From positions 1 through 47,558 of the forward strand of contig JAFGVS010000001.1 of the NCBI GenBank assembly GCA_016937865.1: 47,558 nucleotides of DNA, given 5' to 3'. Shown here in pieces: positions 2,376 through 33,678 of the stretch; position 1 is the stretch's first letter, and every line of letters starts with the position of its first letter. The DNA comes from Alphaproteobacteria bacterium. GTDB lineage: Bacteria > Pseudomonadota > Alphaproteobacteria > Rs-D84 > NBLK01. Both the position numbers and the translations under genes were made by a program. The notes under the pieces are model-generated. The model was given only the letters and a program-made list of their open reading frames with translations, had not been told where the DNA came from and did not search any database.

Positions 2376-3155
2376 ATGAAATATGGCGGAATAGAAGATT
2401 TAAAGGAAGAAACCTGGCAAAGCCTTTTGAGCAATGCTAATAGTGATTTTATAAGCATGCTCTTGCTATGGTATTCTGGAATTAATATGCGAAGCACATA
2501 TTTTTGGATGTTTTCTCATACAATTGAAAAATATTTAAAATCTTATCTGTTAAAACCACATCCCCTTCATAAAGAAACATTAATTTCTACAAAAGAACTT
2601 AAGTCTATACGTGAAAAAGGACATTCTATAGGCGACTTATGGAATAAATACAAAGAAGCAACAAGAAATACTTCAACAACAAAACCAAAATTAAATGAAG
2701 CATTCGATCAAATCATAAAAGATATTTCCACAATTAAAACAAAAACAAGATACTCTTCTGCATCAGGATCTTCATCGGATGGATTCTTATACTTTTACAT
2801 AGTTTTATGTAGCCTTCTAAGACATCGAATTATTGGGAAAACAGAATATCGAAAATCTTTGTATGGATTAGAAGATTCCTGTTTCTACCCTATGATTTAC
2901 TCTCCAACGAGTGAGGGGTATGGAAAAATAATTGTAAAGAAAATGTTGCATGTAATTTTGGAACATGCAGGTTCTTTTACAAACTTAGGATCTGTTAACA
3001 ACATGAATCTTGAAGAGTATTCAATTTCCAATACAGCTATTGGGGAGAAATTAAAAGATTGTCCTATTTGCAAGGGTTCCTCAACAGATAAATTATCTAT
3101 GATTAAATTTTACAGAGATATTCATCCGGAAGGTTTAAAAAAAGATACAAAATAA
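2376..3155 (+). CDS. Hypothetical protein with an HEPN-like N-terminal helical region; orphan, AT-rich
   Basis: 259-aa ORF. Hand-counted GC of two 60-nt samples is 25-33%, against 38-52% in ftsK samples. Helix pattern FSHTIEKYLKSYLL ... KGHSIGDLWNKY resembles the HEPN fold signature (xxEKxLKxxL ... H-x-L-x-x-L). No clear Rx4-6H motif. C-terminal CPICKG. The functional call is weak. Confidence 0.5.
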   Translation: MKYGGIEDLKEETWQSLLSNANSDFISMLLLWYSGINMRSTYFWMFSHTIEKYLKSYLLKPHPLHKETLISTKELKSIREKGHSIGDLWNKYKEATRNTSTTKPKLNEAFDQIIKDISTIKTKTRYSSASGSSSDGFLYFYIVLCSLLRHRIIGKTEYRKSLYGLEDSCFYPMIYSPTSEGYGKIIVKKMLHVILEHAGSFTNLGSVNNMNLEEYSISNTAIGEKLKDCPICKGSSTDKLSMIKFYRDIHPEGLKKDTK

Positions 3156-3319: not shown

Positions 3320-3853
3320 TTAATAATTTACAGTAATTGTATATCCGGATCCACCAGAATTGGCAGAGGAATATGTTCCGGCCGTTTCTGCTCCGGAAAA
3401 AGTAATTTCCCCAATTACATTAAATGAAGCAAGTCCTGAGGCATCTAAAATTAGTGAGCTTGTGTGTTCATGGCTTCCTGCAGGTATAAAGTAAGGTTCA
3501 AAAGTAATAAGATGGCCTGATCCATCACTTAAGATGCCTGTGGCGCCTAGGTTTATATTAACTCCTGTGTTTGGTGCGCCAGTAAGAGCAATTTGTCCAT
3601 AATGCGTTGTTCCGCTACAAACATACGTTGCAGGGCAGCTTACAAGTCCGCCTGAAAATCTATTTAGTCCAACTGTTTGAGGACCAGTCCCAGGATCTAT
3701 TGCGATAGTTCCGAAGTTAATATTTGCAGAGTTAGTGATTGTTAGTGGATTAGAAAGTTCTGCTTGAGCATGACCTGATCCGGTTGCTGCCATTACGCCT
3801 GAAGCAAAAAAGATGCTCAACGCAAAGGTAGATGATTTAAATAAAGTATTCAT
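3320..3853 (-). CDS. Secreted DUF4402-like putative fimbrial subunit (orphan paralogue of 27318-28873)
   Basis: I start it at the internal ATG at 3853, preceded by GGAG (tttaaaGGAGaaaaatATG). Signal peptide MNTLFKSSTFALSIFFASGVMA|[11 protein letters not shown]. Shares [24 protein letters not shown] and the C-terminal AGTYSS.N.GGSGY.ITVNY with the three tandem genes. Confidence 0.8.
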   Translation of the reverse strand: MNTLFKSSTFALSIFFASGVMAATGSGHAQAELSNPLTITNSANINFGTIAIDPGTGPQTVGLNRFSGGLVSCPATYVCSGTTHYGQIALTGAPNTGVNINLGATGILSDGSGHLITFEPYFIPAGSHEHTSSLILDASGLASFNVIGEITFSGAETAGTYSSANSGGSGYTITVNY

Positions 3854-7925: not shown

Positions 7926-7957
7926 AAAAAAAGCGCCGTAATTGGCGCTTTTTTTTA
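7926..7957. terminator. Bidirectional rho-independent terminator between dksA and the usher-like gene
   Basis: Stem AAGCGCC (7931-7937) / GGCGCTT (7944-7950) with a 6-nt loop, flanked by an A-run upstream and a T-run downstream. Confidence 0.7.
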
Positions 7958-7991: not shown

Positions 7992-10900
7992 CTAATTCGG
8001 GTAGCTTTCTTGGCTTTCTTGGATCTGCGGGTAGCTTTCTTGTGTTTCTTCTACGGTATCGCTTTTTGCTAAAGGTTTTTTTAGTACAGGCCGAAGCGGG
8101 TAACTCTTTGGCGTTTCTTCAATCATATCGCCATAAGGCAAGTATTCATGAGAGACCCGATGAACAGGGTCTTTATATTTTCGACCTGGATATGATTCTT
8201 TTGTTTCTTCAATTAAAGAACGACGTTTCTTTTCTTTTTTTCTTTTTTGTTGGGCTTCCCAAAGCTTTCTTTTGGCTTTAATGTTCTTCGACCCACGCGG
8301 CGCATTGCGAGTTGCGTTCTTTTTCCGATTCGCTTCTGGGTGTTGAAGCGGGAATTTACGTGCATGTTTCTCTTTTTCAGTCAGAGGCGCGGGTTCTTCT
8401 ATTACAGTTTCAATTTTTTGAATTGGCATTGGCGGGGTATCGCCATCAAGATGTTTCCCTAAATATTTAACAGAAAGAGTCGGAAGTGTTTTAAAAACGG
8501 TTTCACGATCAACAACGAATCGAAGAGGGCGAGGAGATCCATAGCCTAAAGAACGCATTTGTTCAGGTTGAAACTCTAAAGTATAGCCACCTGGTCTTAA
8601 TTTTTCGAAACCATAATAACCGTCATTATCGGTAATGGTTTCCGCAATAACTTCATCGCCACGTTTAACAAGGAGCCGAATTCCTTTTACAGGACGATCT
8701 TTGCGTTTATAGACCAAGGCAATTTCACCGTCAATAGCGCCTAATTGCATTACAGGGAATTTAACTTTCGCCGCAACGCCTGGTCGAGCCATAACGGTAA
8801 GATGTTCCTCATTTGCATGATATGAAATATCACCTAAAGTTTCTGGGTTGAGCTTCACATTTGTCAGGTGATGGGGGGAAAGGCCAATGATAAATTCAGA
8901 GACACTGTCTTCTCTTCCGGCAGAATTCTTAGATCCATTTGTTTCATAAGAAACAGCTTTAAGGAAAGGTTCGCCTTCGGTATAGGCATCATCATAATTC
9001 TCATCTAAGAAGCTCTGTGTGGCAATGGCCCCTTGATGTGAAAGTCCTGGTTCACGTAAAAAGACTTCGCTTGTAAGTGGGTTGTGTAAAAGACTGGCGT
9101 TATAGGAAATCGAAAGGGTCTGACTGTCTGTAGAATCAAAAGAAAATCCGGCACCAATTGCACCAAAAGAAAAACGTCGAGAAGCATTGAAAGAATAAAT
9201 ATCTGTTTTTCGATCTGTATTATCGGTGTTTCGGGTCCATTTCGCCTGGAAATTTAGCGCTTGTCCACGCCAATCAAGTCCTAAGGCCGTTGTTTGAAGA
9301 AGGTCTGCTTTTAAATCATATCGACCTTCACCACGAAGGGAAAAAGCGCCCATCTGGATATTCATATTTCCTGTTGCGGTTTCTTCCTCGCTGCCTTGGA
9401 AATTAATTTTATTGCGAAGTTCTCCGGAAAGATAAAATTTCCACCAAGATAAAGATAGGGTGTTCGTAAGCTCTCGGTACTCTTCGCCATCAACGGAGGT
9501 TGCAATTTTTAACCGCGAATAAAAAGGCAAAGAAATAATATAGGGAATGGGAATCCGAAAACGGGCGCTAAAATTCGAAACATCATAAAGGAATTCATTG
9601 TCCAAAAAGGATTTTTCAGTTTTTAAACCGTTAAAAACACTATGATCGGCATATAGATTCAAACCACTGAAATTCGCTTCAAACAATCCTTCGTATGCGG
9701 GGGTATCCATATCATCCGCCAAAGCACCAGAAAGCCCAAATCGGAAAACAGAAAAACCTGTCTTTAATCCCAACATCGCGCGATCTTGGCTTTTTTCTTG
9801 GACATTTTGAGCATCTTGCATAGGTTCGTATGAAATAAATCCACCGGTTAAAGAGATGGCGCTGGAAAGTCCATACTCGGTTAAGAAACCGGCTCGGCGT
9901 GCAGTGACCTCTTGGTCATTTAAAGCAATAAGGGGTTTGACGTCTTCTTGTGCAAAAAAGCGAACGGCTAATTCGCCACCTTTTACAGCCGTTGGGGAAA
10001 GATAAACTTCTTTTTCTTCTTCTCGACGTTGACCTTGTGGGCCATAAAAGATCAGTTTGAATTTATTGAGACCCATTTGAAGGGGAAGGTTTTCAAATTG
10101 GTATAAACCTGTGCCATCGCCGGTCGAAAAATCCATTAAAACATTATTACGATAAACTTCAACTTCCCAGCCTTGGGTAAGTTGGCCTTGAAGTTTATAA
10201 TTACGTTGGGTTCCGTTCCCTTTCTCATCAAAAGAAGAAAGATTAATTCCGCGCCCAGTTGTGGACGTGGATATAAGGTCAACGTCATACGTGTTGATGT
10301 CGCCCATTTCGATAAATTTTGCAAAACCTAAAATATCAGAATTGGGTTTGTATCGACTGAGGTTAACGCGGGCAAAGCGGTCTTCACTAGCGGAATTTCC
10401 ATAAAAGTTAAAACTGGTATCTAAACCAAGGAATAGTTGATTCCCAGATAAGGTGTAAGAGGTGGTTTCGGCAACTTCTGTTGGTCGATTGTACTGTGTA
10501 TAAGAAACACCAAAATCAAGGAAAGGGAAAGAGAACCAATCCGTGTTTTCAAGGTAACCATCTTCAAAACTAGCTTGTTTAAATCGCTGTTCACGTAAAA
10601 GTTTCCGTTTTTTTTCACGTTCGACACGTTCTTCAAAAGGCATAGGCTCCAGGGCTTCAACATGTAGCATCAAATCTGCCGTGTTAACTGTCGTGCGAAC
10701 AGGAAAAAGTTTATCAACCAAAGATGAATGAATATAAATATCATCATCTGCCCATTTCACATCATCAGGGGTCAGGGAAAAAGAAACACGGTCGGAAACA
10801 AGAGAGGCATCGCTTAGGTTTAGTTTAAAGGATCGACTTTCTTTCATAAACCAACCTTCGGCTGTTCCCGTTTCAGGATTAACTGTAATCGGAAATTCAA

Positions 10901-11096
10901 AACCAGTAACCAAGTCAGACAAAGGCAAATAAACCCCTCCGTTTTCTGTCTGAGAGGGGAAAGCTTTAAAGCCGTCAACAATCGTGAAATTTTTCATCAT
11001 TGCTTTAAGAATGAAATAATCGTCACGATCCGAAAAATGCGGATCAGGTGCAAGCGTTTGTTGTGCTTGCACCCGATTGAAAACCGACAAGAACAA
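7992..11096 (-). CDS. Usher-like outer-membrane assembly protein with a CarboxypepD_reg-like domain and a basic, repeat-bearing C-terminal tail
   Basis: 1034 aa, immediately downstream of a PapD-like chaperone gene. Long beta-rich middle region with an usher-like segment (FIEMGDINTYDVDLISTSTTGRGINLSSFD). GIRLLVKRGDEVIAETITDNDGYYGFEKLRPGGYTLEF resembles a carboxypeptidase-regulatory-like fold. The only canonical start codon is a TTG at 11096. Confidence 0.6.
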   Translation of the reverse strand: MFLSVFNRVQAQQTLAPDPHFSDRDDYFILKAMMKNFTIVDGFKAFPSQTENGGVYLPLSDLVTGFEFPITVNPETGTAEGWFMKESRSFKLNLSDASLVSDRVSFSLTPDDVKWADDDIYIHSSLVDKLFPVRTTVNTADLMLHVEALEPMPFEERVEREKKRKLLREQRFKQASFEDGYLENTDWFSFPFLDFGVSYTQYNRPTEVAETTSYTLSGNQLFLGLDTSFNFYGNSASEDRFARVNLSRYKPNSDILGFAKFIEMGDINTYDVDLISTSTTGRGINLSSFDEKGNGTQRNYKLQGQLTQGWEVEVYRNNVLMDFSTGDGTGLYQFENLPLQMGLNKFKLIFYGPQGQRREEEKEVYLSPTAVKGGELAVRFFAQEDVKPLIALNDQEVTARRAGFLTEYGLSSAISLTGGFISYEPMQDAQNVQEKSQDRAMLGLKTGFSVFRFGLSGALADDMDTPAYEGLFEANFSGLNLYADHSVFNGLKTEKSFLDNEFLYDVSNFSARFRIPIPYIISLPFYSRLKIATSVDGEEYRELTNTLSLSWWKFYLSGELRNKINFQGSEEETATGNMNIQMGAFSLRGEGRYDLKADLLQTTALGLDWRGQALNFQAKWTRNTDNTDRKTDIYSFNASRRFSFGAIGAGFSFDSTDSQTLSISYNASLLHNPLTSEVFLREPGLSHQGAIATQSFLDENYDDAYTEGEPFLKAVSYETNGSKNSAGREDSVSEFIIGLSPHHLTNVKLNPETLGDISYHANEEHLTVMARPGVAAKVKFPVMQLGAIDGEIALVYKRKDRPVKGIRLLVKRGDEVIAETITDNDGYYGFEKLRPGGYTLEFQPEQMRSLGYGSPRPLRFVVDRETVFKTLPTLSVKYLGKHLDGDTPPMPIQKIETVIEEPAPLTEKEKHARKFPLQHPEANRKKNATRNAPRGSKNIKAKRKLWEAQQKRKKEKKRRSLIEETKESYPGRKYKDPVHRVSHEYLPYGDMIEETPKSYPLRPVLKKPLAKSDTVEETQESYPQIQESQESYPN

Positions 11097-11116
11097 AATG
11101 AAAAATAAAAAAGCTC

Positions 11117-12031
11117 TTATAGTTCAAACTCTTCTTTGAAATTAATATCGGGTGAATCTTTTTTGTCTCCGGTAAATTTCAAAATAAGAGTTTCTCCTTC
11201 AAGGTCCGAAGGGGTGATTTCTTCGCCATCAATATGAAGTGGGATTGAAAAAGATTTTTGATTTAAATTCGTATACAACGCAATATTGCTGATGCGACCA
11301 ATTTCGGTATCAGAAGACAAGAAGCCTTCTTCTTTATAAGCAATAATGTTTCCGCGAATAGATTGCGTCCCTTGACGGGTTAGCGTGAAATTTAACATCG
11401 CTTTCCCTTTTTCGTCACGGGTCAACTTAACAGATTCGAACGTACTTTTAACGCTTGTATCTCCAAAGCGGGCAATAATAGGAATTGTAATACCATATTC
11501 TGCTTGGATATCAATAACGATACCAGCGGATTGCCCAGCAGGTTTTGCCTCAGTTGCAACGTCTTTTTCTTGGATGTGAAAGTGCGAGCGTAGTTCACGG
11601 GCATCATTAAAACGGGCTTTACGGTTAAGCATCAAACGAACAGTTTGTGTTTCACGTGGCTTTAAGACAATTTTTCGAGGGGAATAATCAACGACATCTG
11701 AAGCAAATAAAGCTGTTTTAGTTTGCTCTGTCGTAAGTGGTGTAATTTTTTCAATTTTTTGTTTCGTTTTTGGATCAATGGAAGGATCAACAAATACAAG
11801 GCGTCCGTCACGTTTTTCAACAATGCGGTATCCGCCATTTTCTTGAGGGTAGTATTCAACAAAAGACATTTTATAGGTTTTGGGTTTGGTGTCTGTATTT
11901 GTCACTTGAATAGCCTCAGAACGCACTGGTCCTTGAAAAACAATTTTTTGTGGATGGAGCAAAAAATCTGCGGAGGCAGATTGAGCCAATATTAAGGTAG
12001 CAAGCGTTAAAAACGGGGTAAATAATTTCAT
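11117..12031 (-). CDS. PapD-like periplasmic fimbrial chaperone
   Basis: Start chosen at the ATG at 12031 (AAGGAtcctttaaaATG). Signal peptide MKLFTPFLTLATLILAQSASA|DF. LHPQKIVFQGPVRSEAIQVTNTDTKPKTYKM and YSPRKIVLKPRETQTVRLML match the two hallmark chaperone strands (P..v.F... and sP..f.L.P...q.vRl). Confidence 0.65.
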   Translation of the reverse strand: MKLFTPFLTLATLILAQSASADFLLHPQKIVFQGPVRSEAIQVTNTDTKPKTYKMSFVEYYPQENGGYRIVEKRDGRLVFVDPSIDPKTKQKIEKITPLTTEQTKTALFASDVVDYSPRKIVLKPRETQTVRLMLNRKARFNDARELRSHFHIQEKDVATEAKPAGQSAGIVIDIQAEYGITIPIIARFGDTSVKSTFESVKLTRDEKGKAMLNFTLTRQGTQSIRGNIIAYKEEGFLSSDTEIGRISNIALYTNLNQKSFSIPLHIDGEEITPSDLEGETLILKFTGDKKDSPDINFKEEFEL

Positions 12032-12307: not shown

Positions 12308-13294
12308 ATGAACAAAGCAACATCTTTTGAAGGAGCTCTCGACAATTTAAATGAATTGAAGAAAGAGGCTGTAGAAGTCTCTACGGCAGAGCAGTCTTAT
12401 AAAGACGGAACCAAGTATATTTCTCAAAGAGAATTTCAAAAATCCCTCGCATGTTTCGATGATGCCATTAAAGCCGATGAAAATTATTGGCAGGCTTATA
12501 ATAGTAAAGGCTTTGCGTTAATGAAGATGCGCTTGTTTAAAGAAGCGCGGTCTGAATTTGAAAAAGCGCTTAAAATTAAGCCACGTGAAGTGTCTATCTG
12601 GGTCAACAAAGGAATGGCGCTTAGTCTTAGCAATTTATATGAAGATGCAAAAGATACATTTGATATCGCGCTTCAAATCAATCCAAAATCCATTGAGGCT
12701 TTAAACGGAAAAGCCATTGTGCTTCAAAAACTCTATAAATATAAAGAAGCTTTGGATGTATTAGAACGCGTGATCGAGATTGATCCAAATCGCTTGGATG
12801 CACTTATGAGTGTTGGGGTTACATTACAACGTTTAAAATTGTATGATAAAGCTTTAGAATACTTTGAAAAAGTACTTCAAATCGACAAAAATCATATTCC
12901 GGCCATCAGCGCCAAAGGCGTAACCTATAATTTAATGGACGATCCAACAAAAGCAATCCAGACATTTAAAAGTATTTTTAAAATCGACCCAAGTTCGATT
13001 TCAGCGCAGGTAAGCATTGGGTATGTGATGCAAAAACAAGAGCAATATTTAAAAGCACTGGAAGTCTATGAGCGCGCAGCTGACATGAATGGCGGGGTGT
13101 ACAACCAAAAGATTTGGGATGGGCTAGCCAGCTGTTTAACAAAACTAAGTGAATTCGAAAAAGCTTTAAAATATTACCGTGAAATCATTGCAAAAGAAAA
13201 TGGCAGCAAAAAGTTCGCCGCGGAACGTTCTGCAAGATTCGTGGAAAAAATTAAAACCAAATATCCAAACGGGGTTTCCTCAACGGAAGAATAA
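12308..13294 (+). CDS. Tetratricopeptide-repeat (TPR) protein
   Basis: 328 aa built of reiterated 34-aa TPR units (W..kG.al...g.y.eA...fe.AL.i.P). Confidence 0.85.
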   Translation: MNKATSFEGALDNLNELKKEAVEVSTAEQSYKDGTKYISQREFQKSLACFDDAIKADENYWQAYNSKGFALMKMRLFKEARSEFEKALKIKPREVSIWVNKGMALSLSNLYEDAKDTFDIALQINPKSIEALNGKAIVLQKLYKYKEALDVLERVIEIDPNRLDALMSVGVTLQRLKLYDKALEYFEKVLQIDKNHIPAISAKGVTYNLMDDPTKAIQTFKSIFKIDPSSISAQVSIGYVMQKQEQYLKALEVYERAADMNGGVYNQKIWDGLASCLTKLSEFEKALKYYREIIAKENGSKKFAAERSARFVEKIKTKYPNGVSSTEE

Positions 13295-27317: not shown

Positions 27318-27851
27318 ATGAACCTATGTAAAACAGCATTATTTGTAATTATGGCAATCTTCAGCAGCACAAGCACCTTCGCCGCAACGGGGAGTGGAGA
27401 GGCAAAGGCACAACTCACAAATCCTTTGTCCATTGAACAAACAGCATATATCGTAGACTTTGGAACTGTCGCGATTGACCCCTCTGCGGGCACACAAACA
27501 GTAAGCATAACAGCGAGCTCTACACCTGTTCGAACCTGTCCGCCCAGTTATGTGTGCAGTGGGGGGCCTATTAGAGCTGGGAATTTTTTAATTAAAGGAT
27601 TGAAATATACCCCTGTGTATCTAGACATATCGGGGTCAACCGCAATACTAAGTGATGGAGCTGGAAATACATTGGTCTTTGACCCAGATTTCCTTGGACC
27701 GTCAGACACACGCGCGACTTCGTTGGATGGGGCCGGGCGCAAATATGAAAACATAGGCGGTTCTATTACGTTTACCGGGAGCGAGCCTGCTGGAACCTAT
27801 TCATCAAGTAATGCGGGTGGAACAGGATATCAAGTAAATGTGGTCTACTAA
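27318..27851 (+). CDS. Secreted DUF4402-like putative fimbrial subunit 1
   Basis: Signal peptide ..SSTSTFA|ATGSGEAKAQL. DFGTVAIDP, CPPSYVCSGG, LSDGAGN and the C-terminal [21 protein letters not shown]. Confidence 0.8.
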   Translation: MNLCKTALFVIMAIFSSTSTFAATGSGEAKAQLTNPLSIEQTAYIVDFGTVAIDPSAGTQTVSITASSTPVRTCPPSYVCSGGPIRAGNFLIKGLKYTPVYLDISGSTAILSDGAGNTLVFDPDFLGPSDTRATSLDGAGRKYENIGGSITFTGSEPAGTYSSSNAGGTGYQVNVVY

Positions 27852-27864
27852 AAAAGGAAAAGAA

Positions 27865-28365
27865 ATGAAAAAAGTATTTTTTGTATTAACGTTATTATTT
27901 ACATCAAACGCCTTTGCGGCAACAGGATCCGGACATGCACAAACGGAATTAGAAACGCCGCTTAAGGTAACGAGTCTTGCGGATGTTACTTTCCAAACGA
28001 TTGCGATTGACCCATCTGCGGGTCCCCAAGTGTTAACAATGGAAGAATGCCCAGCGACTTATGTGTGCACAGGCCCAAAACTATATGGTTTTTTAGATAT
28101 AAGGGGGGCGCCAAGTACGGTCGTACATGCATCATTAACGGGATCAACCGCAACTCTAAGTGATGGTGCAGGAAATACGATTACATTTGATCCTTTTTTC
28201 AGAGGAGCGCCAAGATATGAAACCCTGAATACAGCACTTAGTGCAGGTGGTGCGTTATCATTAAATGTCGATGGTTTGCTGTATCTAACAGGAAATGAGC
28301 CCGCGGGAACATATTCATCTAAAAACGCCGGTGGATCAGGGTATCAAATCACGGTTAATTACTAA
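27865..28365 (+). CDS. Secreted DUF4402-like putative fimbrial subunit 2
   Basis: Start at the ATG at 27865 (AAAGGAAAAGAAATG). Signal peptide MKKVFFVLTLLFTSNAFA|[27 protein letters not shown] and PAGTYSSKNAGGSGYQITVNY. Confidence 0.8.
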   Translation: MKKVFFVLTLLFTSNAFAATGSGHAQTELETPLKVTSLADVTFQTIAIDPSAGPQVLTMEECPATYVCTGPKLYGFLDIRGAPSTVVHASLTGSTATLSDGAGNTITFDPFFRGAPRYETLNTALSAGGALSLNVDGLLYLTGNEPAGTYSSKNAGGSGYQITVNY

Positions 28366-28375
28366 GGAGAGGGCG

Positions 28376-28873
28376 GTGAAGAAATTATTTTTTATATTCA
28401 CACTATTGGTCTCATCAAATAGTTTTGCGGCAACCGGATCTGGCCATGCCCAGGCAGAGCTCTCAACGCCTTTAAGTATTTCAAATAGTGTACAATTAAA
28501 TTTTGGAACAATTGCGATTGATCCTGGTTCTGGTGGACAAGTGCTTTGGATTGGCATTTCGGATAATATTGCATGTCCTGCAACATATGTTTGTACAGGA
28601 AGTCCGCAAACAGGTCATTTAATTATACAAGGGGCTCCAAGTAGTTTAGTAAATGTAAGTGTGGTATCAAATGCTGTTCTTTCAGATGGCAACGGGAATA
28701 CATTAATTTTTGTGCCAAATATTGGTGGAGGAACAGAAAAAACATTATCAGAAAGTGGTTCATTAGATATCGCCTATAATGGGACAATCAGCTTTACAGG
28801 AAGTGAAGTAATTGGAACATATTCTTCATCTAATGCAGGCGGATCAGGGTTTCAAGTTACCGCAATCTATTAA
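28376..28873 (+). CDS. Secreted DUF4402-like putative fimbrial subunit 3
   Basis: GTG start at 28376, 6 nt after AAGGAG. Signal peptide [18 protein letters not shown]|[36 protein letters not shown] and [19 protein letters not shown]. Confidence 0.75.
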
Positions 28874-31191: not shown

Positions 31192-33678
31192 ATGAAAAAA
31201 ATATTTATTTTATGCAGTGCTTTTGCCGTTTTGTTTATGTTGGCAAGCAGCGTGGATGCACAAACAAGACGATCAGCTCGATCTGCTCGGTCTGCGAGAT
31301 CTGCAGCAACACAAGATGATGTCAATGGGACACAGGTGAGAAGACGTAGAACGCCACAATCAGCTCGATCCCGTAGAACGGCACAATCGGCTCGATCCCA
31401 ATCAGCAGTAGAAACAGAAAACGGTGCCGTAGTACGTTCAGGACGTCAAAGTGGCCGTGTTGGACGAACTGCAATTATCGGAACACCATCATCTTCCGCG
31501 CTTGTGCCAACAGAGGAAGCAGTCTCCTCCGCTGTCACTTCAGAAGAAGTTAAAAAAGAATACGCGGTTGATCTAGAGGCATTAGAAACAGGGGCAAATT
31601 CTGTTAAAGTGTGCCAGTCAAAAATGCTGGACTGTGTTAAAGGTATGCTACCAGAAGAAACGAAAAAATCAGTTGGATTAGGTCTTTGTTACCTATCTGC
31701 AAAACGGTATGGGTTTGAAAACAAAGAAAAAGCATTACGCGATGTTGAAAGAAAACTATTTTCGATAATGGGAAATGCCGGGTTTGCAAAATTAAGTCCA
31801 CAAGAACAAGCGATTTATAAAGGCTTAGATTTGCAGTTCGAATCAGAAAAAAAAGACAATACAAATGGTGATTTTGAAGAAGAAGAAGATTCAATTACAT
31901 CTATGATGGCTGAAATGGATAAACAGATGGCCTCAATTGATGCGGTTGCGGATTATAATGGACGTGAAGCAACACCGAAAGAATTATTCAGCGAAGCCTT
32001 TACATCATGTAAAGCCGTTGTTGATACCTGTGAATCTGTATTGGGCGAAGACTCTTTGCAAAAATTTATTAGAGCGAAATCAGATTTTGCCTGTGGAACA
32101 TACGATAACGCATTACAAGATAAATACAGAAAACAAACATTAATGCTAACGCAAGTAGAAGCGAAGATGAAGGGCGATTATTTAAAAACACGTCGAAAAG
32201 AAATGCTCAGCATGCAAGAAGGGTTCCTTAAAATTGAAGAACAATTGGAAGGATCCATTTGTGGAAAAGGACTACAAGACTGTTTGTATTGTGGTGAAAA
32301 TCAAACGAACGAAGAGGCTTGTTCTATTGACTTAGTGAATAAACTTGAAAGTCAAAAACCCGTTGTTCAAGATCTTTTAGATCAAATTAGTTACGGAGAC
32401 GCTGAACGCGGCGAAACAATCTGGCGTGCGTTTATTCAAAACAAAAAAACGACGATAGACCGATTTGCACGTATGGCAAACTACAGTGCAAAAGAACAGG
32501 CTGTGCGTGGATTGGAAGACGTAACAAAACAATATCGCAAAGAATTTACGAAATGTTTGAACGACGTATGTGGAGACGATCAAATTGCCTGTGCAGACGT
32601 AGATGCAATCAAAGCAGGATTTGATGGATTGCAACGTTCAAAACCAATTACGTATACAATCACAAACACAGAAGGGGAAATTGAAACAAGAACAATGCCT
32701 TTGTCAGAATTTTCATTCGATAAGCTTGTAAATGTGACAGTTGATTTCTCAAAAGCGAATTCAGCATGTCGTGATCGCATTGATTTGTTTGCGAACGAAC
32801 TTCGATTGTTGCAATCAAATCCGAATGTAGATAAATCATTATTGCCTTGGTTTAATGCGGAAGAATATGACGCAGCAAACCCAGAAGAATGGGATGAAAG
32901 TGTAATTCGTAAGTTAACACAATATGCAGACAGTATGTTCCGGAAAACATATGCAGCTGTAAATGCCAAAGCAACACAAAACTTGGATGCAAACAAGTCT
33001 CAATTGTTAGACAACCAATTGGCGTTCTTAGCCAAGCGTGTAGAAGGCTATGAATCGAGCCGTGCGGCGGAACTTCGGATCAGTAATGCAGATAAGGAAA
33101 CAGCGATTGCAATGCGTGAAAAAGATACAGAGGTCTATGAGCGTGATCGTGGAATGGAGGTCGCCCGGGACACAATGGATAAAGAAGTCGCTGTGACTAA
33201 AAATTTAAATGCGGCAGAAATTGATACTTCTGAAGCAACGCTTGAAAAAACCAAAAATTTAAATATAGCAGAAATTGATACTTCTGAAGCAACGCTTGCG
33301 AAAACAAAATCTACAAACCTCGCAGAAAAAGATACTGCTGCTGTTGAAGCAGAAAAAACCTTAAAAGAAAATAAAGACACAAGAAGAGAGCTTGAATTGG
33401 TTGAAATTTGTTATAAGCAGGATATTTCAAGAAAGAAAAGCTGGCGTAAATATGTGAACTATTCATGGAGCGAACCTGTGTGTAAGAAGTTTAAACCTGG
33501 AACAAAAGGGAAATGTATTCCGCAAAACTTCGGTGTGATAAACACAGGTCTTCACAGTATCAGAGCAACCTCCTGTACGACAGCAAACGGCGAAGCCCTT
33601 GCAAGAGAGGCTGATGGAAGCTATGTCGTTCCAGGTGGCGAGGAAAGAGAAGCATCAACAACAACAAGATCAAATTAG
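31192..33678 (+). CDS. Secreted Cys-rich repeat protein of unknown function
   Basis: Signal peptide MKKIFILCSAFAVLFMLASSVDA|Q. Arg/Ser-rich repeat region (RSARSARSARSA, TPQSARSRR/TAQSARSQS). About 20 Cys in the body. 18-aa tandem repeats near the C-terminus. RBS GGAGGAAATTATG, with a terminator downstream. Confidence 0.75.
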   Translation: MKKIFILCSAFAVLFMLASSVDAQTRRSARSARSARSAATQDDVNGTQVRRRRTPQSARSRRTAQSARSQSAVETENGAVVRSGRQSGRVGRTAIIGTPSSSALVPTEEAVSSAVTSEEVKKEYAVDLEALETGANSVKVCQSKMLDCVKGMLPEETKKSVGLGLCYLSAKRYGFENKEKALRDVERKLFSIMGNAGFAKLSPQEQAIYKGLDLQFESEKKDNTNGDFEEEEDSITSMMAEMDKQMASIDAVADYNGREATPKELFSEAFTSCKAVVDTCESVLGEDSLQKFIRAKSDFACGTYDNALQDKYRKQTLMLTQVEAKMKGDYLKTRRKEMLSMQEGFLKIEEQLEGSICGKGLQDCLYCGENQTNEEACSIDLVNKLESQKPVVQDLLDQISYGDAERGETIWRAFIQNKKTTIDRFARMANYSAKEQAVRGLEDVTKQYRKEFTKCLNDVCGDDQIACADVDAIKAGFDGLQRSKPITYTITNTEGEIETRTMPLSEFSFDKLVNVTVDFSKANSACRDRIDLFANELRLLQSNPNVDKSLLPWFNAEEYDAANPEEWDESVIRKLTQYADSMFRKTYAAVNAKATQNLDANKSQLLDNQLAFLAKRVEGYESSRAAELRISNADKETAIAMREKDTEVYERDRGMEVARDTMDKEVAVTKNLNAAEIDTSEATLEKTKNLNIAEIDTSEATLAKTKSTNLAEKDTAAVEAEKTLKENKDTRRELELVEICYKQDISRKKSWRKYVNYSWSEPVCKKFKPGTKGKCIPQNFGVINTGLHSIRATSCTTANGEALAREADGSYVVPGGEEREASTTTRSN
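31267..31404 (+). repeat. Coding Arg-Ser-Ala micro-repeats (9-bp SAR units; 27-bp TxQSARSxx units)
   Basis: cga tca gct / cga tct gct / cgg tct gcg / aga tct gca (31270-31305). acgccacaatcagctcgatcc (31351) versus acggcacaatcggctcgatcc (31378). Confidence 0.8.
33199..33360 (+). repeat. 54-bp (18-aa) tandem coding repeat: two near-identical copies plus one degenerate copy
   Basis: aaaaatttaaatGCGgcagaaattgatacttctgaagcaacgcttg at 33199 recurs at 33253 with a few substitutions (KNLNAAEIDTSEATLEKT / KNLNIAEIDTSEATLAKT / KSTNLAEKDTAAVEAEKT). Confidence 0.8.

Follow-up and report, generated by a model that had tools for sequence, protein, structure and literature searches.

In a 47,558-nt stretch of alphaproteobacterial DNA (contig JAFGVS010000001.1 of assembly GCA_016937865.1; the whole stretch, positions 1-47558, is referred to here as the window), two minus-strand genes at 7992-12031 very probably encode a periplasmic chaperone and an outer-membrane usher of the chaperone-usher pathway. 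This pair is likely to assemble polymers of DUF4402 proteins (PF14352), four of which are encoded elsewhere in the window. An earlier note on this DNA had proposed a chaperone-usher-like pair for DUF4402 subunits encoded elsewhere, and this core proposal is supported by three lines of evidence: the predicted fold of the usher, the membership of the chaperone in a PapD-like family, and the linkage of DUF4402, chaperone and usher genes at 44 of 44 loci in other genomes.

The usher and its chaperone

Both genes were found on the minus strand at the positions given by the earlier note. The chaperone gene, an open reading frame (ORF) of 304 amino acids (aa) at 11117-12031, starts at an ATG at 12031, with GAAGGA 9 nt 5' of it, and encodes a Sec signal peptide, MKLFTPFLTLATLILAQSASA|D. 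The usher gene (7992-11120) would encode 1034 aa from a TTG at 11096 and, more probably, 1042 aa from an ATA at 11120. Just past the usher stop, the same strand has a hairpin that resembles a terminator (7926-7955; stem of 12 bp, then a T-run), so the operon consists of two genes. Among the window ORFs no subunit gene lies inside it, as had been noticed before.

By its modelled fold and by homology, the 1034-aa protein is an usher. The AlphaFold2 model was built on an alignment of 26 homologous sequences and had a mean predicted local distance difference test score (pLDDT) of 78 and a predicted template modelling score (pTM) of 0.62. When this model was compared with the PDB by Foldseek, the 18 best matches were all FimD or PapC, with E values from 1.1e-30 to 1.3e-14, and they included full-length complexes (913-960 alignment columns) as well as isolated translocation pores. 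Two of these isolated pores, 3ohn and 2vqi, matched with template modelling (TM) scores of 0.54-0.59 (normalised by target length). The first match outside the ushers was SdrD at E 2.5e-9, five orders weaker, which covered the transthyretin-like domain alone, and LptD, porins and TonB-dependent receptors appeared only at E values of at least 5e-7. Sequence identity to the FimD and PapC structures was about 10-13%.

The modelled domains, all encoded on the minus strand, follow the order of a complete usher. The predicted N-terminal periplasmic domain (10647-11024, residues ~25-150, pLDDT 85-91) is followed by a long helix (residues 153-174) and by the translocation barrel (9081-10529, residues ~190-672), in which 24 beta-strands were counted. 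Six of these strands precede the plug and eighteen follow it; the plug itself (9999-10202, residues ~299-366) is a six-strand sandwich placed between barrel strands 6 and 7. Two C-terminal sandwiches come next. The first is C-terminal domain 1 (CTD1; 8757-9032, residues ~689-780), which was aligned with FimD CTD1 by hhalign, and the second is a transthyretin-like sandwich of the CarboxypepD_reg/SdrD_B type (8457-8741, residues ~786-880), identified by Pfam and in the model at the position of CTD2. The module which the earlier note had described as CarboxypepD_reg-like near residues 790-850 was located at residues 797-848; its match to the Pfam model CarboxypepD_reg was just under the cut-off (29.9 bits against 32.3), and that to SdrD_B was above it (37.1 bits against 29.7). 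Transthyretin-like Pfam matches were obtained for 25 of the 26 family members.

The Lys/Glu-rich C-terminal tail is also present, with a length of about 150 aa instead of the 170 aa estimated before (7995-8456, residues ~881-1034). It is predicted to be disordered, with pLDDT below 50 except for one helix, and it holds three EETxxSYP repeats (IEETKESYP, IEETPKSYP and VEETQESYP). At the same C-terminal end, other members carry SPOR (4/26) or AMIN (2/26) domains, and additional transthyretin-like repeats are present in one member or more. These modules suggest a periplasmic or peptidoglycan-contacting appendage, and the tail of the window usher is probably periplasmic as well.

Homology at the sequence level was obtained from profile-profile comparison. 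The usher family aligned with a profile of five E. coli ushers (FimD, HtrE, SfmD, YehB and EcpC) at 97.4% in hhalign (E 1.4e-11, 567 columns), a value which had been 96.8% before EcpC was added; against the single FimD sequence the match was weak (2.4%), and it was significant only with the small E. coli profiles. The usher-like segment pointed out in the earlier note, GDINTYDVDLISTSTTGRGINLSS (residues 265-288), was aligned in this way with the conserved FimD motif LGDGYTQGDIFDGINFRGAQLASDD. The most conserved motifs of the family, GWEVE(L/V)YRN and F(Y)GPQGQ(R)REE, sit in the plug, where the conserved stretch GWEVEVYRNN...FKLIFYGPQGQRREE is in register with AQVTIKQNGYDIY...GDLQVTIKEADGSTQ of the FimD plug. 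Similarly, the family motif TD..G.a.l..l..Y....V.vD..SL.D is in register with FimD CTD1. The window usher keeps every family-invariant residue over its 3.1-kb ORF.

For the chaperone, 30 orthologues were gathered from usher loci. PapD_N was the Pfam family matched by most of them (26/30, best E 8.7e-8). The chaperone family aligned with four classical E. coli chaperones at 87% in hhalign and, after EcpB was added, at 95.2% (E 2.5e-8) over 109 columns of the N-domain, and the match to the single FimC sequence was weak (18.6%). The controls, in which the chaperone profile was compared with pilins and the DUF4402 profile with chaperones, remained below 1%. Two hallmark residues were aligned when the family was compared with EcpB alone. 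The family-invariant P118 corresponds to Pro60 of EcpB, the D1 proline, which has been reported as the sole residue invariant across the whole chaperone-usher superfamily (PMC4654587). The near-invariant R148, in an EYRSH motif that reads ELRSH in the window, corresponds to Arg89 of EcpB, the F1 arginine, which anchors the subunit carboxylate and is typical of archaic and alternative chaperones only (Arg89 in both CsuC and EcpB) (PMC4654587). A carboxylate-anchoring role of R148 would thus be expected in the DUF4402-linked chaperones too. Both the N-domain with its D1 proline, as in PapD-like chaperones, and the F1 arginine of the non-classical ones are therefore present. These alignments place the 304-aa protein in the PapD-like chaperone family, with homology that covers the N-domain, and they speak against its assignment to a non-chaperone Ig-like family, which the earlier note had named as an outcome that would refute its proposal.

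Other chaperone features are less uniform. In the classical chaperones PapD and FimC, the subunit carboxylate is anchored by the pair Arg8/Lys112. The basic residue of the A1 strand is an Arg (PTR) in most members and a Lys (PQK) in the window. A G1-like strand, GITIPIIARFG, is present in the window chaperone; the G1 strand falls outside the part covered by hhalign, so no residue is aligned with Lys112. Members of the family have a length of 260-330 aa, and their C-terminal half is conserved (R219, S224, Y253, R259), as would suit a second Ig-like domain. Between the C1 and D1 strands of the window protein there is an insertion of about 30 aa, GRLVFVDPSIDPKTKQKIEKITPLTTEQTKT (residues ~74-104; 11720-11812, minus strand), which none of the 29 aligned relatives has, not even the closest.

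Several results weigh against the assignment of the pair to the chaperone-usher pathway. The window usher had no match to PF00577 at E<=1 and none in NCBIfam, and among its 26 relatives PF00577 was matched by only one, at E 0.09. No solved usher was found among the PDB sequences with either the single usher protein or the family profile, the latter giving only SdrD- and NOMO-like matches to the transthyretin domain. The window chaperone alone scored 14.4 bits on PapD_N, for which the cut-off is 23, and this sub-threshold match was the only one obtained for it in Pfam, NCBIfam and the PDB sequences; with the profile of its family, FimC was found among PDB sequences at E 0.097 and CsuC was not found. 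Its C-terminal domain had neither a PapD_C match nor an hhalign alignment to any known chaperone, so that a two-domain chaperone fold would have to be assumed for this half.

It could be supposed from these results that the usher is an unrelated beta-barrel, such as a TonB-dependent receptor, an LptD-like protein or a porin, which happens to lie next to a generic Ig-like periplasmic protein, the likeness to a chaperone-usher pair being coincidental. Besides the missing Usher match in Pfam and NCBIfam, such a view could draw on the RefSeq name of a plasmid-borne family member, 'carboxypeptidase-like regulatory domain-containing protein', and on the weak matches of fn3_5 and other Ig-like models to the chaperone family. 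However, the three barrel types named do not come closer than E 5e-7, against 1e-30 for the ushers; the strand count, the position of the plug and the pre-plug and CTD1 motifs agree with FimD; and PapD_N is the model most often matched by the chaperones, with hhalign controls below 1%. A coincidental likeness is thus largely refuted, and we regard it as extremely improbable. For the 1034-aa protein, the earlier note had named assignment to an unrelated outer-membrane protein family as refuting; the structure search led to ushers and to no other such family, and hhalign reached 97.4%.

The proposed DUF4402 subunits and their linkage with the pair

All four DUF4402 proteins of the window match PF14352. 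One gene is solitary (3320-3853, minus strand, 177 aa; E 8.8e-11, 43 bits against a cut-off of 25.2), and the other three form a tandem on the plus strand: 27318-27851 (177 aa), 27865-28365 (166 aa) and 28376-28873 (165 aa, with a GTG start; the database protein also has 165 aa). They are predicted to be pilin-like subunits. The earlier note had rightly placed four DUF4402 genes away from the pair, at 4 kb and 16 kb; the distances are 4.1 kb and 15.3 kb. Each of the four proteins has a signal peptide with cleavage after (A/S/T/V)-(F/M)-A, and the mature N-terminus ATGSG(H/E)A(Q/K)(A/T)(E/Q)L is common to them. The paralogues are only 43-52% identical in amino acid sequence, yet the signal peptide, the N-terminal extension and the C-terminal motifs have been kept. 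At this identity they should be old paralogues, and a recent duplication was ruled out.

The sequences of 163 DUF4402 proteins show what would be expected if the N-terminus served as donor strand and the chaperone held the C-terminus. Near the N-terminus they alternate strictly in the pattern A-x-A-x-(I/V)-(V)-x-P-(I/L)-x-(I/L), whose alternate positions are 92-99% hydrophobic. Near the C-terminus a Tyr is conserved; in 129/163 proteins it is followed by one more residue (Asn or Gln), and in the window copies it is the final residue. A model of the 3320-3853 protein (AlphaFold2, alignment of 79 sequences, pLDDT 86) shows a beta-sandwich; its first strand begins at residue 38, which leaves residues 23-37 outside any strand in the monomer. 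Its best PDB matches were chaperone-usher pilins (FimG, the pilin domain of PapG, FimF, CsuE, PsaA and PapA), and these matches were weak, with probabilities up to 1.00 and E values of at least 3.7e-3. The window copies also carry CP(A/P)(T/S)YVC, with two Cys six residues apart, and 126 of the 163 DUF4402 proteins are without any cysteine.

In other genomes the three kinds of genes were found together. In a collection where each species is represented by a single genome, at least 577 of the first 600 pattern matches were confirmed as members of the usher family. Eighty loci were retrieved, their ORFs were called, and the ORFs were searched with profiles that had been seeded from the window proteins and the operons of two relatives and then iterated on the loci. 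Linkage was counted where the usher is flanked on each side by 4 kb of sequence or more, which is the case at 44 loci. A chaperone gene was found within 500 bp of the usher at 43 of them, the single exception having its chaperone 1.8 kb off in a divergent subunit-chaperone cluster, and between one and seven DUF4402 genes were found within 8 kb of the usher at all 44. The usual layout is one or more DUF4402 genes, the chaperone and the usher on one strand. The co-occurrence that the earlier note had suggested looking for is thus complete in this set. No conserved neighbour was found at the loci examined besides the subunit, chaperone and usher genes, and with a linkage of 44/44 no other candidate cargo is left.

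Variants of the usual layout were also seen. At several loci of Acidobacteriota and on one groundwater contig, the gene immediately following the usher codes for a DUF4402 protein that has an additional N-terminal half and a length of about 313 aa. Genes for such two-domain proteins were located at L078 12580-13521, L080 12517-13458, L061 12525-13487, L028 4202-5143, L026 12574-13509 and L093 8001-8945, and at L093 the order DUF4402, chaperone, usher, two-domain DUF4402 is that of a pilin-chaperone-usher-adhesin operon, as known from the classical and Csu systems. The position and the size of this gene are those of a two-domain tip adhesin (FimH, CsuE); the window contains none. In an alphaproteobacterial metagenome-assembled genome (MAG), a second chaperone-like gene follows the usher (L004 5416-6192), which recalls EcpB and EcpE.

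If the window pair works like known systems, assembly would proceed as follows. The four DUF4402 paralogues would be exported by Sec and cleaved after (A/S/T/V)-(F/M)-A. In the periplasm donor-strand complementation would bind each subunit to the chaperone, whose G1 strand GITIPIIARF would fill the groove of the subunit while R148 anchors the carboxylate of the terminal Tyr, as Arg89 does in CsuC and EcpB. The chaperone-subunit complexes would then bind to the usher's N-terminal domain, and the 24-strand barrel would be cleared of its plug. By donor-strand exchange, the N-terminal extension of the incoming subunit (A-x-A-x-L...P-L-x-I) would displace the chaperone strand from the previous subunit, and the polymer would exit through the barrel, remaining attached at its base to CTD1 and the transthyretin-like CTD2.

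The part of this scheme that concerns the subunits also has points against it. The structural matches between DUF4402 and pilins were weak in Foldseek, none reaching E<=1e-3 and with TM scores of 0.4-0.56. In addition, no sequence link from DUF4402 to the Fimbrial or SCPU families was found by Pfam, hhalign or a profile search of PDB sequences. In that search the DUF4402 profile found only an unrelated carbohydrate-binding module, and the hhalign comparison with classical pilins was rejected because only the signal peptides were aligned. SCPU was matched by 2 of 26 DUF4402 proteins at E 0.076 and was missing from the 25 listed families of the 79-sequence set; the Pfam link is negligible, and an assignment of DUF4402 to SCPU was rejected. 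Furthermore, DUF4402 genes also occur without a nearby chaperone-usher pair. In Mucilaginibacter ginkgonis (Bacteroidota), neither a chaperone gene nor an usher gene lies within 8 kb of a DUF4402 gene (L092 8001-8519), which means that DUF4402 is not always tied to this machinery; the DUF4402 proteins of Bacteroidota may use another route.

The spore coat protein U of Myxococcus is exported by an archaic chaperone-usher system, and a coat or matrix role has been proposed for it. A functional pair that builds no pilus was considered accordingly: DUF4402 would be secreted as a surface coat or matrix layer, or the substrate in this genome would be something other than DUF4402. The label 'spore coat protein U-like', which the Joint Genome Institute (JGI) gives to some DUF4402 proteins, the lack of a two-domain adhesin gene in the window and the weak structural likeness to pilins would fit such a coat. 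However, a different substrate is hard to reconcile with the complete linkage, which leaves no other cargo, and the conserved alternating hydrophobic extension is what a polymerising subunit needs. Some operons moreover have a two-domain DUF4402 gene after the usher, as in adhesin-tipped pili, and the sequence link to SCPU amounts to the two matches at E 0.076. A coat or another substrate is thus improbable, and polymers of DUF4402 assembled by the pair remain the preferred reading.

Dispersal of the system in the window lineage

The window was the only locus examined in which the chaperone-usher pair has no adjoining subunit genes. In the family elsewhere, subunit, chaperone and usher share one operon; in the window the terminator closes the operon after the pair. 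The earlier description of a dispersed and atypical system therefore applies to the layout in the window lineage and not to the family, whose order is the canonical one. Similar dispersal was observed in a related alphaproteobacterial MAG, in which the closest DUF4402 homologues are split between a separate tandem of four genes (L091) and a single isolated one (L089). Gene dispersal thus seems to be a trait of the window lineage. An ancestral subunit-chaperone-usher operon would have been broken up there, and one chaperone-usher pair would then serve subunit genes at two other loci.

The start of the usher gene is also unusual. With the TTG at 11096, the ORF begins 20 nt past the chaperone stop, and only the stub MFLSVFNRVQA precedes the mature sequence. 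The reading frame extends without a stop as far as the ATA at 11120, from which a complete signal peptide is read, (M)RAFLFFILFLSVFNRVQA|QQTLAPDP, and this peptide aligns with those of the two closest usher homologues. With a TTG start, an ATT start or the ATG start given in the database, the signal peptide is truncated. The ATA overlaps the TAA stop of the chaperone (ATAA) and stands 8 nt 3' of GAAGAG; ATA is an accepted but rare initiation codon in translation table 11. Judged from these sequence features, the usher more probably starts at ATA 11120 than at TTG 11096, in which case the 20-nt gap between the two genes, noted earlier and correct for the TTG start, would probably not be real. 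Either a rare ATA start may be coupled to translation of the chaperone, or the usher may have lost its start codon.

These peculiarities raise the question of whether the window holds a decaying remnant, with a fragmented operon and a lost usher ATG, which builds nothing and whose DUF4402 proteins are inert or have another role. They also count against assembly by an intact system: the subunit genes are unlinked to the pair, the usher signal peptide has no canonical start codon ahead of it and is restored by ATA alone, and no upstream motif common to the three window loci, such as a shared promoter, was found above shuffled controls. The closest usher relative (L088, 56% identity) is an orphan, with no chaperone or DUF4402 gene in its available flanks (10 kb upstream and about 3.5 kb downstream to the contig end), which suggests that the system may be decaying in this lineage; the separate DUF4402 clusters of the related MAG point in the same direction. 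On the other side, all six ORFs (chaperone, usher and four DUF4402) are intact and full-length, each with a signal peptide. The usher retains its invariant residues over 3.1 kb, the chaperone retains P118 and R148, and paralogues which have diverged to 43-52% identity still keep their export, extension and C-terminal features. Moreover, ATA is permitted in table 11, and the position of GAAGAG and the overlap with the stop suit translational coupling. Decay is therefore considered unlikely, and a pair that still serves the DUF4402 genes of the window is favoured.

The surroundings of the L088 usher were noted separately. It lies between a DNA methylase gene with an HNH protein gene on one side and a phage-type integrase gene on the other (L088 5074-9060 and 14886-16058), which hints that it is in or beside a mobile or rearranged region.

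Relation to known classes, distribution and surroundings

The earlier note had regarded archaic systems as the closest known variants. Compared with the archaic (sigma) pili, such as Csu of Acinetobacter baumannii, CupE of Pseudomonas aeruginosa and SMF-1 of Stenotrophomonas, the DUF4402-linked system has the same set of small secreted subunits, PapD-like chaperone and usher. Its chaperone has the D1 proline and the F1 arginine (Arg89 of CsuC), its subunits are small with an N-terminal extension and an aromatic residue at the end, and some of its operons end with a two-domain subunit like CsuE. Its phylogenetic spread also reaches well past the beta- and gamma-proteobacteria, as has been reported for the archaic class (PMC4654587). 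In contrast, the subunits belong to PF14352 and not to SCPU (PF05229). Archaic pilins have an invariant cysteine pair, Cys16-Cys62 in CsuA/B (PMC4654587), whereas most DUF4402 proteins (126/163) are cysteine-free and the two Cys of the window copies are six residues apart. Unlike in archaic systems, moreover, the usher escapes PF00577, the chaperone profile misses CsuC among the PDB sequences, and the CTD2 position is taken by a transthyretin-like domain, after which SPOR, AMIN or repeat modules often come. The resemblance to archaic systems therefore holds for the arginine, the taxonomic range and the layout, and fails for the SCPU subunits and the cysteine pair.

With the classical type 1 (FimA/C/D/H) and P (PapA/D/C/G) pili of E. 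coli, the system shares the full-length usher architecture (N-terminal domain, 24-strand barrel, plug, CTD1 and CTD2), the aligned pre-plug, plug and CTD1 motifs, and a homologous chaperone N-domain that includes the basic residue of the A1 strand. FimG, FimF and the PapG pilin domain were the closest, though weak, structural matches of DUF4402, and the canonical gene order of the family, subunit-chaperone-usher(-adhesin), is also the classical one. It differs in that identity is about 10-13% with no Pfam Usher or Fimbrial match, in that the F1 Arg stands where hhalign places a Leu of FimC, and in its range, which covers environmental phyla rather than enterobacteria. The alternative (alpha) pili (EcpA/B/C/D/E, CFA/I) are approached in other respects: adding EcpB and EcpC to the profiles raised the chaperone match from 87 to 95% and the usher match from 96.8 to 97.4%, Pro60 and Arg89 of EcpB align with P118 and R148, and the second chaperone-like gene after the L004 usher is placed as ecpE is. 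DUF4402 is unrelated in sequence to the alternative subunit family.

With subunits other than SCPU, no cysteine pair and no curated Usher match, the DUF4402-linked system was assigned to none of the Greek-letter clades. Judged by comparison with E. coli ushers, it is best seen as a chaperone-usher branch of its own that has diverged very far; its F1 arginine and broad taxonomic range are a resemblance to the non-classical (archaic and alternative) classes, not membership in them. A wider proposal can be put forward only tentatively, and we rate its chance at slightly below even. In this proposal, DUF4402, the PapD-like chaperone and the 'carboxypeptidase-regulatory-domain' protein would form a fourth major chaperone-usher lineage beside the classical, alternative and archaic ones, with its own mostly cysteine-free pilins, a transthyretin-like CTD2 and, in some members, peptidoglycan-binding C-terminal modules. 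It would have thousands of members in at least eight phyla, missed by current usher models and with no literature found. In the window lineage one pair would act in trans on unlinked subunits, its usher being translated from an ATA coupled to the chaperone stop.

The size of the family was estimated by a HMMER scan of 1.84 billion cluster representatives (50% identity clusters) with the usher family. At E<=1e-30, 5,117 clusters were found, and at E<=1e-10, 14,382, although some of the latter may match only through the transthyretin-like domain. Carriers were found in Alpha-, Beta- and Gammaproteobacteria, Acidobacteriota, Nitrospinaceae (Nitrospinota), Desulfobacterota, Bdellovibrionota, Chlorobiaceae, Akkermansiaceae and Zixibacteria. 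The family is mainly present in alphaproteobacteria, Acidobacteriota and other environmental phyla and not in enterobacteria, and the relatives come mostly from samples of water, sediment and soil and from free-living isolates. Seven PLSDB plasmids carry relatives, so the system can be mobile. For example, the 65-kb plasmid pE5SP1 of Polaromonas sp. E5S (L094, 3360-8625) carries a complete DUF4402-chaperone-usher operon beside insertion sequence (IS) elements and toxin-antitoxin genes. In RefSeq its products are named 'DUF4402 domain-containing protein', 'molecular chaperone' and 'carboxypeptidase-like regulatory domain-containing protein', which means that the chaperone was vaguely recognised and the usher was not. 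A full-text literature search on DUF4402, PF14352 and IPR025514 found no paper, an absence that is no proof of unpublished status, and in the literature on archaic or novel chaperone-usher systems nothing was found on this usher family. The DUF4402-linked ushers are thus a sizeable chaperone-usher branch which has so far not been annotated as such.

If these assignments are true, a function would be predicted for DUF4402 and for a very large outer-membrane protein family, a plasmid-borne member of which RefSeq names after a minor domain. The range of the chaperone-usher pathway would extend to Acidobacteriota, Nitrospinota, Bdellovibrionota, Chlorobiaceae, Desulfobacterota and many free-living alphaproteobacteria, and surveys relying on PF00577 would miss such systems. 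Adhesion or biofilm fibres could be tested outside pathogens, since the canonical operon is present in bacteria that can be cultivated: Novosphingobium (such as N. nitrogenifigens), Brevundimonas staleyi, Geothrix fermentans, Erythrobacter (such as E. rubeus) and Qipengyuania. The usher, with its transthyretin-like CTD2 and peptidoglycan-binding additions, would provide a variant for comparison, and the window would be an example of a chaperone-usher pair parted from its subunit genes.

The neighbours of the system in the window belong to an ordinary core chromosome: FtsK, a SufS-like protein, thioredoxin, DksA, ClpP, ClpX, RecJ, Era, TopA, PBP1a, XseA, TsaD, an AddA-like helicase, SpoT and GltX. 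The earlier note had suggested a host-interaction fibre of an intracellular bacterium. No feature of the window supports an intracellular lifestyle or a host-interaction role, and this suggestion was dropped in view of the core chromosomal neighbours and the mostly environmental or free-living relatives. The divergently transcribed TPR protein gene next to the pair (12308-13294, plus strand) is real, with seven TPR repeats found by Pfam; as a component of the system it was rejected, not being a conserved neighbour in other genomes, and it is probably unrelated to it.

Neither a tRNA gene nor an Rfam match above the gathering score was found in the 47.5-kb window. Two sizeable ORFs, both on the plus strand, had no Pfam match at E<=1e-5: 2376-3155 (259 aa) and 31192-33678 (828 aa). 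The latter lies directly upstream of the AddA-like helicase-nuclease gene and may encode a divergent AddB.

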